DNA of 64,000 nucleotides, from the NCBI GenBank assembly GCA_951406725.2, contig OX597815.1, positions 72,292,001 to 72,356,000 on the forward strand. The letters are read 5' to 3'. The stretch's first letter is position 1. Each line of letters begins with the position of its first letter. The DNA comes from Octopus vulgaris. Taxonomy: Eukaryota. The notes under the pieces are model-generated. The model searched no databases. It was given only the letters and a program-made list of their open reading frames with translations, and was not told where the DNA came from. Position numbers and translations under genes: made by a program. Below are positions 4,811 through 43,334 of the stretch, piece after piece.

Positions 4811-6206
4811 TATTTTTCCTTCTAATTTTCTTTCTTCACTTACTCCTCCCACTTTTCCTGTTTCGTCTTATTCCCCTCCTCCTTTTCCTTTTTCTCCCCC
4901 TTCTCCTCCTCCACCTTGTTTTTCTCTTCCTTCTCATTCTGTCCCCTTTTCTCCTCTTAATTCTTATTTTCCATCGTATTCTTCAACTTCTCCTCCTTCC
5001 CTTGCTGTTGTTGTTGCTGCTGCTACTGTTGTTGTTGCTGCTGTTGTTGTAGTTGTTGTGATTAAATAAATAGCTATATCGGTAGAAAACCCTCTGACCT
5101 ATCATCCATCCATCCATCCCTCTACATTGATTGAAGTCACATAATTAATTCCGTATGTCACAGCCACAGTCACCGTAAAAAGCCTTTTGCTGCATTAACA
5201 GTCTTCCGTAATAGAGTCATCTAGACTGATATTCGATACGGCACGACATGAAAGATGAAGGAGAGGGGGGAAACGGTGGTAGAGGGGTGGAAAGCCAAGG
5301 AAAAATAGGGGTTAAACAAGTTAAATAAGGGTTGATTTTCAACCGATAGATATGGAGATGGGGATGATGAGGGAGTGGGAGAGAGAGAGTGAGAGAAAGA
5401 GAGAGGGGAGGGAAGAAAAAGCGCGCGCGCGCGTATGTGTATGAGGACAGGATGGTTCTGAAGCAGAATAAAGGAGTAGAGAAAGGTATAAGGAAAAGAG
5501 AAAGAAGAGGAAAGACAGAGAGAGAGAGAGAGAGAGAGAGAGAGAATGAATGCGAGTAAGTATAACTGTGTTCAGACGAACAAGGAAGCTGAGGAGGAGA
5601 AGAAGAGGAGAATTGAAAAGGAGAAATGTGTTTTAATAAATAGCTTTAATTAATGAATGAGACAAAATGAGATAGAAATTTTACGAAAGCTCAAAAGGTT
5701 GACCACAATAACCTCGTCGTAAGGTAACAAATGATATGGATGTACAGAATCGTCATAATTACAGATAATGAAGGATTATTACTTAAATTCGAGGCGGCTA
5801 CTGCTTATCTTTGAAGAGAAGACTCTGCATATAATAATTAAAAAGAAATCAATGGTATTTGAGTTGGAGCAACGTTAGGAGGACCCTATTCAAGAACATG
5901 TATATACATACATACATGCATACATACATACATACATACATACATACATATACATATGCATACAAGCATACATACATATACATATGCATACAAACATATA
6001 TATATATGTGCGTATATTTCTATGTATATATGTGTGTGTGTATATATATATATGTATATAATATATATATATATATATATATATATATATATATATATAT
6101 GTGTATATATATATGTATATATATATATGTATATATATATATATATATATATATATATATATATATATATATACTTTATTTTAAGCAGCAGAAAATTCAA
6201 CAAAAT

Positions 6207-6240
6207 CTGTTACTAGTTTCTGTTGCCGTTCATCAGACAG
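6207..6240 (-). ncRNA. Minimal type I hammerhead ribozyme motif
   Basis: Minus strand: CUGU-CUGAUGA-ACGGCAACA-GAAA-CUAG-UA-ACAG. Stem I CUGU/ACAG, canonical core, palindromic stem III ACUAGU, GUA site. Stem II is weak or mutated. Confidence 0.7.
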
Positions 6241-6245
6241 TTTTC

Positions 6246-6706
6246 TAGAATGGAACATATATATTAATTCAATCTATACTACAAACGCTATTTAAAGAAA
6301 TGGACTTGTTTGATATCAATTTCGAGCGATAAACAAAAGGTCAAAATATATGTATATATATATAAAAACTTATAAAATTATAAAATCGAGGAAAAACCGA
6401 GGAAAAAACTATTGCCGTTAATAAGACAGTATTAATGCATGAAATTAAACCTGCTATAAATACTGCAGTATTTATAGCAGGTTTAATTTCTATGCATTAA
6501 TTGTATGTCTTCATTAACGGCAATGGTTTTTCTCGGTTTTTCCTCGATTTTATAATTTATAAGTTTTTATATATATATACATATATTTTTGACCTTTTGT
6601 TTATCGCTCGAAATTGACCGTTTTTCAAAGGCCAATCAAACAAGTCCATTTCTTTAAATGTAGCGTTTGTAAAGTATAGATTGAATTATATATATGTTCC
6701 ATTCTA
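6246..6706. repeat. ~460-bp spacerless palindrome (foldback)
   Basis: Centre tactgcagta (6461-6470). Arms match out to tagaatggaacatat / atatgttccattcta, with scattered indels. Confidence 0.95.
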
Positions 6707-6856
6707 TAACTTCTGATAAAATAAAGCATATTACTCTACCACTGGTATTTGAGTACTATACATTTATGTGTTTACTCCGGTATATATATATATATATATA
6801 TATATATACATATATATATATAAATATTTTTCGGTCATTTTCTGATGAACAACGTT

Positions 6857-7006
6857 GCAGTTTCCGTCTACCAAGTTCAGTCACAAGTCAGTGGTTGTCC
6901 TAGGACTATAGTAGAAAATACTTGCCCGAGATACCATGCAGAGGGACTGAACATGGAGTGATGTGGTTGGGAAGCAAACTTCTCAACCATACAACCTTCT
7001 TGCACC
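6857..7006 (-). mobile_element. SINE family A, 5' half, diverged
   Basis: Matches family A head (cagtttccgtctacc...gggactgaac...aaacttctcaaccat). Confidence 0.8.
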
Positions 7007-40239: not shown

Positions 40240-40500
40240 TAAATGAGCAACAAAGATGTACAGTTGTCAATTCATAACGGCTGTTTCAAGCGACTCCTGC
40301 CACAGATATGACAAAAGAAACAATGTAAATATTTTTGTTCCATTATTGTTGTGAATATGTTAAAGAAATGGTTGTATTCTTCAAGTTTGAAGTCAATGCG
40401 TTTTTTTTTCAAATGAGGTAATGTTTTCATTAATCAATTAAAGGAGTCGCTTGAAATAGCCGTAATGAATTGACACTTGTATATCTTTGTTACTCATTTA
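40240..40500. repeat. Inverted repeat with 59-bp arms, same family as the 32.1-32.3 kb hammerhead element
   Basis: 40240-40298 is the reverse complement of 40442-40500. 'gcttgaaatagccgtaatgaattgac' aligns to 'gcttgaaacggctgtaatgcattgat' at 32261. Confidence 0.9.
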
Positions 40501-40796
40501 AATATATATATGTATATATATATATGTATATATATATGTATATATATATAATATATATATATATATATATATATATATATATATATATATATGTATATAT
40601 ATATATATGCGGTTTGAGTGTGTATATATATACACTCAAAATAACCAATAAGAATATCTTCTACCAAATTACCGAAGATATTCTTGTTGCTTATTTTGAT
40701 TATAATCACCCCATGGATTTATATGGATAACACCATACAAAATTCTGGTGCATCTAGCTTAAGTACCATATTCATTTGAATCTATAAATATATATA

Positions 40797-42825
40797 TATA
40801 TATATATGTGTGTGTGTGTGTGTGTGTGTGTGTGTGTGTGTGTAAATATGTATATATACAATAATATAAATAATATATATATATATATGCATATATGGGT
40901 ACAGGACATCATTAACAGTAAACAACATGAGATACGAAAACAAATGAGTTCAATACGCAAACAACGAGAGAAGCAAATAGAAAACAGGACAAGTAACATA
41001 AAGAACGACCCTTCATCAGTTGTCGGCTGTCTATCTACTCCTCATTTTGAGCATTGAACGACAATATGAGTCTTCGAAGACAGTTACTCCCATAAATGCC
41101 AGAAAAAAACTTTGAATTTATGGAGGGTCAAAGTTAGGGACAAAAACAGGACAGTGGAGACATACAATGAAACTGAACGAAAACAAACGTGGTGGGTCGT
41201 TAGACCAGAATGAGAGGGAAATAGTGAATACAGGAGAAAATATTTTCTTTTAACATAGAAAAGTTAGAAAAGAGAAGTATAGGAGACGTTCAGTCCTTAG
41301 AAAGTCCGTGCAAGAAAGGAAGATGGACGATGGTCACGCGTGAGCAACGAGAGAGAGAGAGAGAGAAAGAGAGAGAGAACGGTGAGAGAGAGTAAAAGAG
41401 AATTAGAGAGGATAGGGGAGAAAACAGTATAGGTGGGTCGTTAGACCAGAATGAGAGGGAAATAGTGAATACAGGAGAAAATATTTTCTTTTAACATAGA
41501 AAAGTTAGAAAAGAGAGGTATAGGAGACGTTCAGTCCTTAGAAAGTCCGTGCAGGAAAGGAAGATGGACGATGGTCACGCGTGAGCAACGAGAGAGAGAG
41601 AGAGAAAGAGAGAGAACGGTGAGAGAGAGTAAAAGAGAATTAGAGAGGATAGGGGAGAAAACAGTATAGAGTCGCATCAAAAATGTTAAGATATACTTAC
41701 TTGGAAATGGATGCGTGGCGCATATTATATATATGTATGTATGTATGTATGTAAGTATGTATGTATATATATATATATATATATATATATATATATATAT
41801 ATACAGATACATATACATATATATGTTACTTGTCCTGTTTTCTATTTGCTTCTCTCGTTACTTGCGTATTGAACTCATTTGTTTTCGTCTCTCATGTTAT
41901 TTACTGTTAATGATGTCCTGTACCCATATATGCATATGTATATATATATATATATATATATATATATATATATATATATATATATATATATATATATTTA
42001 TATTATTGTATATATACATATTTACACACACACACACACACACACACACACACACACACATATATATATATATATATATATATATGTGTGTGTGTGTGTG
42101 TGTGTGTGTGTGTGTGTGTGTGTACAGAAGCCTATATGGGTACAGGACGTCATCAACAGTAAACAAGATGAAATACGAAAACAAATGAGTTCAATATGAA
42201 AACAACAAGAGAAACAAATGAAAGACAGGACATGTAACATAAATAACGACCTTTCCTCAGTTGTCGGCTGTCTATCAAGTCTTCATTTCGGTGCGACTCT
42301 TTTTGATGCGACTCTACTCTATACTATTCCCCCCTATCCTCTCTAATTCTCTTTTGCTCTCTCTCACCGTTCTCTATCTGTCTCTCTCTCTCTCTCTGCC
42401 CCTCTTTCTCTTTTTCTCTCTCTTGTTGCTTACACATGACCATCGTCCATCTTTCTTTTCCTCGCGTGACTATCTTTCTTTCCTGCACGGACTTTCTAAG
42501 GACTGAACGTCTTCTATATCTCTCACTTCTATCTTTTCTCTTTTCAAAGAAAACATTTCTCTCAGAGTTTACTATTTTCCCTCGTTCAGGTCTGACGACC
42601 CTTCATGTTTGTTTTCGTTTGGTTTCCTATATGTCTCCACTGTTTCTATTGTATTATTATTTAATTGAACGCCACGCCTCCATTTCCAAGTATGTATATA
42701 TATATATATATATATATATATATATATATATATATATATATATATATATATATAACATACTTGGAAATGGAGGCGTGGCGTTCAATTAAATAATAATAAT
42801 ACATTAGAAACAGTGGAGACATATA
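40797..42825. mobile_element. Cluster of one CT-rich terminal-repeat family in alternating orientations, with a ~241-bp tandem duplication
   Basis: 40797-41000 is mirrored by 41823-42085, with a third copy at 42133-42290. 41191-41430 is duplicated at 41432-41670 and mirrored by 42295-42650. A (TA)n-loop inverted repeat lies at 42628-42825. Confidence 0.88.
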
Positions 42826-42913
42826 AATTCCAGGGTAGCAAAAGCAATTTAGAAAATGTCTTTGCTACCAGTGGTCTAGCGAAGAGAAAAAAACACTAGT
42901 CAATAGACTATTC

Positions 42914-43334
42914 ATATAAAATACAGTGTACATTTAAACACATAAGAGATGGCCATAACAGGACATCTGACTCGCTAGAAGGAGTAGTTAAACTCCAAAC
43001 CACTATTAGGGGTAATTCGAAAGGGAATGAAAAATAAAAAATATTTACTCTCTATTTCCTGTACCATGGTTTCAAGCAATCTTCAGCAAATAAAATAATT
43101 TACTAGGCGAAGCTTGGCTTTCCTGCTGATGTGAACTTCGCCTATTAAATAATTTTATTTGCTGAAAATTGCTTGAAACCATGGTATAGGAAATAGAGGT
43201 TAAATGTTTATATTTTTCATTCCCTTTCGAAATTACCCCTAATAGTGGTTTGGTGTTTAACTACTCTTTCTAGCGAGTCAGATGTCCTGTTATGGCCATC
43301 TCTTTAGTGTTTATATGAGCATTATATTTATATA
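42914..43334. repeat. ~420-bp foldback with ~20-nt loop
   Basis: gagatggccataacaggacatctgactcgctagaa / ttctagcgagtcagatgtcctgttatggccatctc and onward. The arms meet near 43112-43135. Confidence 0.95.
43119..43193 (+). ncRNA. Type I hammerhead ribozyme motif (A9 variant) spanning the loop and right arm of the foldback
   Basis: UUUCCUG-CUGAUGU-GAAC...GCUU-GAAA-CCAUGG-UA-UAGGAAA. 7-bp stem I and palindromic stem III ACCAUGGU. The left-arm copy has the perfect stem I partner CAGGAAA. Confidence 0.72.

Follow-up and report, generated by a model that had tools for sequence, protein, structure and literature searches.

Head-to-head foldbacks in an Octopus vulgaris locus as probable by-products of Penelope-like element insertion

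Inverted repeats in the window

A stretch of 64,000 nucleotides from Octopus vulgaris (assembly GCA_951406725.2, contig OX597815.1, positions 72,292,001 to 72,356,000; hereafter the window) holds six inverted repeats. It raises the question whether such foldbacks are mobile units in their own right, as an earlier note on this DNA had proposed, or are left behind by the insertion of Penelope-like elements (PLEs). All of the inverted repeats described before were recovered in their places by self-BLAST, with E values far beyond chance: U5 at 42914-43335 (9e-128), U2 at 27337-27877 (1e-75), U3 at 31795-32087 (2e-35), U1 at 6229-6720 (3e-33 and 7e-22), U4 at 40237-40503 (2e-15) and a mini unit at 3338-3434 (6e-10). 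Each consists of two 5'-truncated copies of the 3' end of one family, placed head to head in (TA)n. Every one sits within or next to (TA)n or (TG)n, in agreement with the microsatellite setting reported earlier. The sites had been located correctly, but the true units are larger than described (U1 6174-6780, U3 31729-32312, U5 42821-43335), because one arm bears a 3' tail. The units had also been assigned to mostly different families; U3 and U4 are sister families that are 76% alike. The units are as follows.

3003/3268-3438, strand mixed: mini unit, stub made of two 3' ends of a Hydra-type PLE, head to head
6174..6467, minus strand: left arm of U1, which is the 3' end of a young PLE assigned to the Hydra clade, short end at (TA)n
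6468..6780, plus strand: U1 right arm, long (tailed) end; its 5' breakpoint equals that of the left arm
about 27098-28017, both arms: U2, ORF-less unit of ~710 bp, head to head, with an internal TA tract
31729..32312, both arms: U3, an old Hydra-type PLE's putative long 3' UTR, head to head
about 39981-40503, both arms: U4, sister family of U3, head to head
42821..43335, both arms: U5, ORF-less tandem unit of ~475 bp (retrozyme-like), head to head

The tail is found on the left arm in the mini unit (minus strand, 3268-3337 plus 3003-3058, parted by a SINE-like insert), in U3 (with an internal deletion of ~250 nt), in U4 (~255 nt of tail and 62 nt of body) and in U5 (cut within the hammerhead). 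The right arm has the short end in these four, which in the mini unit (plus strand) lies at 3438. In U2 the left arm has the short and the right arm the long end, and in the tailed right arm of U1 an internal deletion of ~70 nt takes out the hammerhead.

Families, parents and monomers

The U1 family is a young autonomous element that encodes an RT and, at the C-terminus, a GIY-YIG. Its parent (L078) is organized as pLTR(455 bp)-ORF-pLTR together with an inverted truncated copy. In the ORFs of L078 and a second locus (L071) a YRDD-type RT motif and a C-terminal EN-like region were found, and RWK, DKT, CxCX5C, CxxC and CxH could all be read, which are given as criteria for the Hydra clade in section 11 of PMC8557442. 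Atlas neighbours of the ORF at 0.95-0.96 bear RVT_1 or GIY-YIG; Pfam returned no match for three pieces of the ORF, nor did a PDB sequence search with it return anything. On the basis of these sequence features we place the U1 family among the Hydra-clade PLEs. In the young two-armed U1 loci, TA repeats are present at both ends in 14 out of 14. By eye, the ORF also bears a clear likeness to Hydra-1_Obim as it appears in the supplement of PMC8557442.

Two further families appear linked to relics of Hydra-type ORFs. A copy of the mini family (L221, one locus) adjoins a Hydra-type ORF fragment that is 55% identical to the U1 protein. For U3 the link is weak and consists of a decayed EN C-terminus ~2 kb upstream in 2 of 5 loci (E 2e-5 and 0.02). 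A similar C-terminus was seen by eye in 2 more U3 loci. The PLE connection of the window units that had been suggested is supported. The window itself contains two decayed relics, linked to no unit:

53358..53624, minus strand: Hydra-type RT-thumb/linker ORF relic (tblastn E 2e-7)
62871..63317, plus strand: Hydra-type RT ORF relic (tblastn E 2e-14)

The latter bears out one of two relics claimed previously, whereas the other, at 2270-2560, was not recovered at E<0.5. A likeness of 2270-2560 to the Hydra N-terminus is apparent by eye only.

The U5 family is a non-coding head-to-tail monomer with a period of ~475 bp, and in many of 30 loci the unit continues into or from a next one (e.g. L245, L246, L249, L251, L252, L260, L265, L266 and L270). 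U2 has a tandem period of 706-723 bp (3 loci) and no ORF, and seems to work like a non-autonomous PLE derivative. Both ORF-less families likely move in trans. The proposal of ORF-less, retrozyme-like units is therefore partly right for the monomer, as U5 and U2 are ORF-less tandem units, but it does not apply to the U1 family, which has an ORF. A Hydra ORF relic ~400 bp from a U5 copy (L249/L273) was considered as a U5 parent and rejected, given the SINE-like insert between the two; no U5-type end follows the relic within the stretch fetched.

Hammerhead motifs

Candidate type I hammerhead motifs were recognized in 5 of the 6 families. Three foldable hammerheads had been claimed for the window:

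6207..6240, minus strand: U1's minimal type I hammerhead motif, with 4 bases fewer than in the family motif
32195..32281, plus strand: type I hammerhead motif of U3, passes the strict type I descriptor
43119..43193, plus strand: type I hammerhead motif of U5, core A9 changed to T

Only the second is intact, with a stem I of 5 bp, a long stem II and a near-palindromic stem III; the other two are altered. The U1 copy has the core and stem I, but its 'ACTAGT' stem III arises from a 3-base loss. The half hammerhead noticed in the 40.4-kb unit (U4) is indeed there, in the right arm, the core having gone by deletion, and a decayed hammerhead-like motif that had been overlooked is visible by eye in the mini unit. 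None of the window units keeps two intact hammerheads, which speaks against a foldback that is copied as a whole. Stem III is an 8-nt palindrome in the U5 family and a 10-nt palindrome in the mini family.

Rfam cmscan of the whole window gave no hammerhead among the 150 of 266 matches listed, which were microsatellite-driven miRNA noise, and two targeted Rfam scans gave none either; therefore a descriptor and family alignments were used. The U1 family satisfied the descriptor in 29 of 29 loci. In the U5 monomer, 91.6% of cells were paired over 43 rows, as compared to 22-54% in slid controls, and the closing pair of stem I changed from G-C to A-U in 7 rows, this being the sole compensatory pair and uncorrected for kinship. 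No canonical hammerhead was found in 58 U2 loci, only a CUGANGA half-core; five strict descriptor matches in these loci sit in neighbouring sequence and were rejected. MFE folding of six hammerhead regions gave values no better than shuffles (z -1.27 to +0.73).

Ends and junctions of two-armed loci

The copies have fixed 3' ends and variable 5' breakpoints. Among the loci, taken in each search as the top scorers out of 40 candidates (7 of the U1 loci had been chosen as pairs already visible), exactly one end was tailed in 60 of 64 two-armed cases, and two tails occurred in none. More explicitly, one tailed arm was present in U1 (14/14), U5 (12/12, after dropping four rows with apparently two tails that were internal tandem joints), U3 (5/5), U4 (10/10) and the mini family (19/23, with no tail detected in 4). 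All six window units obey this rule. Under independent choice of the ends, the probability of finding no double tail is ~2e-6 (first 54 loci). In the 5 clearly asymmetric U1 loci the tailed arm is longer in 3 and shorter in 2, and in U5 it is longer in 5, shorter in 5 and about equal in 2. In 3 of 19 loci of the U4 family (L283, L290, L291) the inverted arm is a tail only, the sequence of which is absent from the other arm.

The inversion points are distinct in 15 of 15 U1 loci, where they are spread over 2.4 kb and no two loci share both, in 12 of 12 two-armed U5 loci and in 5 of 5 two-armed U3 loci. For the mini family, 24 junction calls were obtained from 24 loci. Matches of U2, U3 and U5 are mostly without an inverted partner within 1.5 kb, so that single-armed copies are common.

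The two arms of a locus are coupled. In U1 their breakpoints fall within 35 nt of each other in 10 of 15 loci, against 1.1 expected (0 of 100,000 permutations), which makes these junctions nearly symmetric; several are palindromes or near-palindromes. Subfamily variants were found on both arms 69 times and on one arm 5 times. The similarity of the arms could be due to gene conversion or assembly polishing; substitutions private to a locus are on both arms in only 3 cases and on one in 23, and the arms of L063 and L065 differ by 13 and 7.

Origin of the foldbacks

Considering that the inversion points differ by locus and that single-armed copies are common, the foldbacks are very probably by-products of PLE insertion. 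Taken as a whole, the explanation that fits best, and that we regard as likely, is one of one-off insertions into (TA)n of two 5'-truncated ends via two primed cDNAs. The two-primer step, in which one cDNA would be primed on each side of the cut, is read from genomic footprints and is put forward with somewhat less assurance, as the reading towards which we lean. An RT-endonuclease of the Hydra clade, probably a dimer, would nick the two strands in (TA)n. Priming would take place at a short start site of the RNA for one DNA end and at a long start site further downstream for the other, in most cases on one and the same RNA or on sister RNAs of one source locus. The two cDNAs would terminate early, frequently at one position, and the joining of their 3' ends would rely on short microhomology of a few bases or on a local palindrome. 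For the ORF-less units the PLE enzyme would be borrowed in trans, and the hammerhead would process the tandem precursor RNA without being needed to make the foldback. It is an even bet whether a dimeric RT-endonuclease allots to the two sides of the (TA)n break one start site each on the RNA, copies both arms from one template and in this way also spreads ORF-less hammerhead units; if so, two-ended priming replaces the self-priming explanation of head-to-head PLE structures.

That explanation, in which a single truncated cDNA snaps back and copies itself or self-primes on an antisense template (Arkhipova et al. 2013), is the strongest competitor, although an improbable one. Self-priming has already been proposed in PMC3846280, and both the nearly symmetric, partly palindromic U1 junctions and the 69 to 5 ratio of common to one-armed variants are as it predicts. 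However, the second arm should then lie inside the first, and a tailed arm that is the shorter of the two on its 5' side should not occur at all, whereas the tailed arm is shorter by 1408 nt in L061 and by 729 nt in L062 (both U1), as well as in the 5 U5 loci mentioned. Since tail-only arms exist, fold-back is refuted as the sole route; it may explain part of the symmetric junction class. The counts of the ends, the tail-only arms and the matching of the arms in source and often in length favour two primed cDNAs over a simple fold-back.

The earlier note proposed that the foldback in its entirety forms an ORF-less unit; its transcript would be a long dsRNA of which one end cleaves itself, and PLE RT would copy the unit as such. 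ORF-less families do exist, the junctions of L202 and L206 (mini family) seem to coincide, probably and by eye, and the junction of L276 (U4 family) lies within ~10 nt of that of U4 in the window; but the queries behind these near-matches contained the junction. The same breakpoint at unrelated loci was not encountered as the pattern of a replicating unit; nearly every locus in the five families that were tallied has a breakpoint of its own. Two pairs of U2 or U3 loci (L090/L102, L121/L123) that might represent a reused structure have their flanks in common as well and are locus duplications. Considering also the many single-armed copies, we judge a replicating foldback highly improbable, a designed long dsRNA is not supported, and the new foldback ribozyme element does not hold up.

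We attach equally little credence to chimeric fold-back reads, i.e. to palindromes as artefacts of long-read assembly. The window copy of U1 does show 18 and 16 small deletions in its arms with only 1 substitution per arm, as compared to 0-3 small deletions in each of 29 other U1 copies, and this excess looks like consensus error. On the other hand, the arms are unequal in length and ends (a tail on one side), those of old units differ by 12-25% in sequence, and the outer flanks are not mirrored. Both U5 outer junctions are matched without mismatch by independent contigs (run X1); no contig covers the central U5 junction (43120-43149) or several U1 bins, gaps that are evidence neither way. Least credible of all are MITE or Foldback-type DNA transposons. 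They would account for inverted termini, a variable middle and a TA target but not for unequal (short versus long) ends, for copies whose 3' end is fixed while the 5' truncation varies, for the RT and GIY-YIG of the parent ORF or for the common single-armed copies, and they are refuted for U1.

Comparison with known systems

In L1 twin priming, one primer comes from each target strand, and the inversion that results is joined by microhomology. There the second primer is internal and the 3' end is not duplicated, whereas here both starts would be near the 3' end, which both arms usually carry. No literature match was obtained for PLE, twin priming and inverted in combination, and neither the one-tail rule as a count nor a two-primer PLE model was found in the literature searched, which was mostly without subscription papers.

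The two-cDNA model has a biochemical counterpart in PAc Poseidon (Frangieh et al. 2024, PMC11167929). According to passages of that study, the PLE protein cuts the two target strands and extends them in vitro, starts at two adjacent RNA sites that bound the tail, uses an AT-rich target and is predicted to be a dimer, while hammerhead cleavage is dispensable for insertion. It belongs to another clade, and inverted insertions are not addressed in those passages.

Head-to-head inverted PLE insertions with palindromic junctions have been described before (PMC3846280, PMC8557442). The Hydra-clade PLEs in passages of Craig et al. (2021, PMC8557442), including Hydra-1_Obim, resemble U1 in the single ORF with RT and C-terminal GIY-YIG, in the five sequence motifs, the pLTR hammerhead and the (TA)n target, and, according to the legend of its Figure 2, they resemble the present units in an inverted 5'-truncated copy with a tail often at one end only. 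The tails are longer here (70-260 versus 30-40 nt), as is the U1 element (~3.4-3.8 kb versus under 3 kb). One-tail counts, tail-only arms and arm coupling are not given in those passages, and appear to go beyond PLE accounts published in the sources cited here. In Adineta vaga, Penelope copies are likewise head to head with junction palindromes and a tail that may be present on one inverted pLTR, as reported in passages of Arkhipova et al. (PMC3846280); self-priming on an antisense template was invoked there, whereas the arm geometry found here favours two separately started cDNAs. PMC8557442 counts the formation of tandem and inverted PLE insertions among the questions still open, and the end rule, tail-only arms and arm coupling provide predictions that can be tested in the existing in vitro system for PLEs and by a census across the genome.

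Metazoan non-LTR retrozymes, as portrayed by Cervera and de la Pena (2020, PMC7229834) and by Li, Clavereau and Pollet (2026, 10.64898/2026.07.22.740005), share with U5 a non-coding, low-GC, head-to-tail organization and a type I hammerhead, and their PLE origin has been proposed before. Their monomers of ~300 bp are shorter than those of U5 (~475 bp) and U2 (~710 bp), and they form long arrays, whereas U5 and U2 are dispersed 1-1.6-mers with PLE-type inverted arms and tails; U2 differs further in having no canonical hammerhead. The word 'inverted' is absent from the main text of PMC7229834. The fact that U5 has the same insertion footprint as an autonomous element supports the idea that PLE enzymes are the carriers of animal retrozymes.

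Inverted-repeat units and their repeat families

Gapped self-BLAST confirmed all six inverted repeats that the earlier note had claimed for this window (E 9e-128 to 6e-10), which has around 36% GC and is rich in microsatellites, within a genome of 2.8 Gb that, by its SINE-like repeats, appears to be that of a cephalopod. Every arm could be assigned to a dispersed repeat family:

3.3 kb: mini unit; a Hydra-type ORF fragment adjoins one locus of its family
6.2 kb: U1; 3' terminus of an autonomous element that is young
27.3 kb: U2; ORF-less unit with a period of 706-723 bp (three loci)
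31.8 kb: U3; 3' region of ~2 kb, with a decayed endonuclease C-terminus ahead of it (weak match)
40.2 kb: U4; sister family of U3
42.9 kb: U5; ORF-less tandem unit of ~475 bp

First-look candidates, which are not copy numbers, amounted to 1427 (U1), 687 (U2), 2352 (U3), 1446 (U4), 2440 (U5) and 278 (mini); 40 of these were scored per family. In every family the 3' end is constant and lies at (TA)n, the extent of 5' truncation varies, and a tail of extra 3' sequence may be present. The long ends of U3 and U4 are nearly the same, with a tail of ~90 nt in U3 (31729-31781) versus ~255 nt in U4 (39981-40236).

The proposal that the units are ORF-less holds for U2 and U5, but not for U1, whose family has an autonomous ORF-bearing Penelope-like element (PLE). 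This copy, at locus L078, comprises a 455-bp terminal repeat, the ORF, a second terminal repeat and an inverted truncated copy. The ORF carries the motifs RWK, DKT, CxCX5C, CxxC and CxH, which PMC8557442 gives as marks of the Hydra clade, and it is clearly alike by eye to the octopus member Hydra-1_Obim from the supplement of that paper. A PLE lineage with RT and GIY-YIG domains that does not look Hydra-like, with copies up to 90% alike, adjoins several examined loci (L080:4408-5763, L118:2534-2995, L259:1223-1491).

Other repeats were observed in the window. The stretch 40783-42825 is probably another PLE-type or retrozyme-type family, with CTGATGA/CTGACGA cores at 41019 and 42260 (minus) and 42592 (plus), a 241-bp tandem at 41191-41669 (97%) and nested inversions. 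Local inverted duplications, ~95% alike, occur at 42628-42825, directly abutting the tailed end of U5, and at 17607-17832; in both, the shared arm end faces a long central (TA)n tract, and they possibly originated by hairpin repair at a TA break. The left arm of U2 has ~115 bp of unrelated sequence (27200-27315) within its internal TA tract. Weaker inverted repeats (68-78%) lie at 10214-10407, 40636-40699 and 49560-49809, the last holding a 40-bp tandem and lacking a TA flank on at least one side. The inverted pair at 28143-28694 was rejected as a PLE foldback, its arms being opposed copies of a common repeat that we take to be SINE-like.

Relative to its family, the window copy of U1 carries small deletions, 18 in one arm and 16 in the other, a single substitution in each arm and no insertions, versus 0-3 deletions in 29 other copies. 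At this copy, the gaps listed in contigs from four sequencing runs bring back family-type bases. The deletion-only divergence (6174-6780; 34 small deletions, 2 substitutions) is likely a consensus error in a perfect palindrome, so that neither it nor the ACTAGT stem III is reliable; many deletions are, however, common to both arms, and they may be genuine. The outer junctions of U5 were matched exactly in contigs of run X1.

Breakpoints among related loci

The earlier note's foldback would, as a replicating unit, share its inversion breakpoint among loci, and no such sharing emerged for U1, with 15 different breakpoint pairs in 15 loci (window copy counted; insertions of 0.6 to 5.5 kb), or among the two-armed loci, those with two 5'-truncated 3' ends joined head to head, of U5 (12/12 distinct) and U3 (5/5). 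The mini family gave 24 junction calls for 24 loci, one coincident pair being probable by eye, and U4-family junctions vary, the nearest lying ~10 nt from that of the window. Inspection of U2 yielded one case of shared structure, in which the flanks were shared too. Most matches of U2, U3 and U5 had no inverted partner within 1.5 kb. Given these differing breakpoints and solitary matches, the foldback arises at insertion.

Hammerhead motifs

Hammerheads had been proposed in three units. Under a strict descriptor one convincing intact type I hammerhead motif stands, at 32195-32281 in U3, whereas the U1 motif misses four family bases and that of U5 has A9 changed to T; U4, credited with half a hammerhead, has indeed lost the core. 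A second descriptor match (30762-30898) was discarded for its 3-bp stem I and 58-nt stem III. The window motifs were detected neither in two targeted Rfam scans nor among the whole-window matches listed. An internal deletion has removed the hammerhead from the tailed arm of both U1 (6706-6717) and U3 (31780-31781).

Within the families, the type I descriptor matched 29/29 U1 loci, 44/58 U5 loci (a count that takes in weaker alternative folds) and 5/29 U3 loci, and a looser pattern 7/19 U4 loci. One of 29 mini loci passed, at an unrelated place; a candidate motif was found by eye in decayed mini copies. U2 has a half-core only. Stems I and III pair despite sequence differences between families. 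In U1, U3/U4, U5 and mini, stem III forms a full or near palindrome; PLE hammerheads act as dimers via such a stem. In a 43-row alignment of U5, 91.6% of cells are paired in the predicted hammerhead, and the closing pair of stem I changes from G-C to A-U in 7 rows.

End rule, arm coupling and proposed mechanism

Three footprints limit the mechanism: a one-tail rule, the length and content of the tailed arm, and arm coupling, all from loci that are best-scoring matches and not a random sample. Exactly one arm is tailed in 60 of the 64 two-armed loci outside the window; no tail was detected in 4, and none has two (P ~2e-6 under independent choice, for the first 54 loci). All six window units obey the rule. 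The arms are also coupled: the two breakpoints lie within 35 nt of each other at 10 of 15 U1 junctions (1.1 expected), subfamily variants occurred on both arms 69 times versus 5 times on one arm, and arms differ by a mean of 2.8 substitutions within a locus versus 10.7 between loci, although this likeness could be inflated by gene conversion or polishing.

A single cDNA folding back on itself would yield both arms, but it cannot give the variation of the tailed arm, which is longer on its 5' side in some loci, shorter in others and consists of the tail only in 3/19 U4-family loci. The simplest reading of the footprints, which we consider somewhat favored, is that two cDNAs are primed from the two sides of the cut. 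Both would be primed at one (TA)n cut, starting from a short and a long start site on one RNA or on sister RNAs, and would then be joined via microhomology.

Comparison with known elements

For a PLE of a clade different from the window's Hydra-type elements, PMC11167929 shows that both strands are cut and extended, that two start sites bound the tail, that a dimer is predicted and that the hammerhead is not needed; we found no reported strand preference of the start site there. Our literature search found no published count of the one-tail rule and arm coupling, and this mechanistic footprint is a useful addition to known PLE and retrozyme biology. The window units themselves are real and are accounted for by that biology: they have the known PLE structure of an inverted 5'-truncated copy, often with a tail at one end (PMC8557442), and of head-to-head palindromic junctions (PMC3846280).
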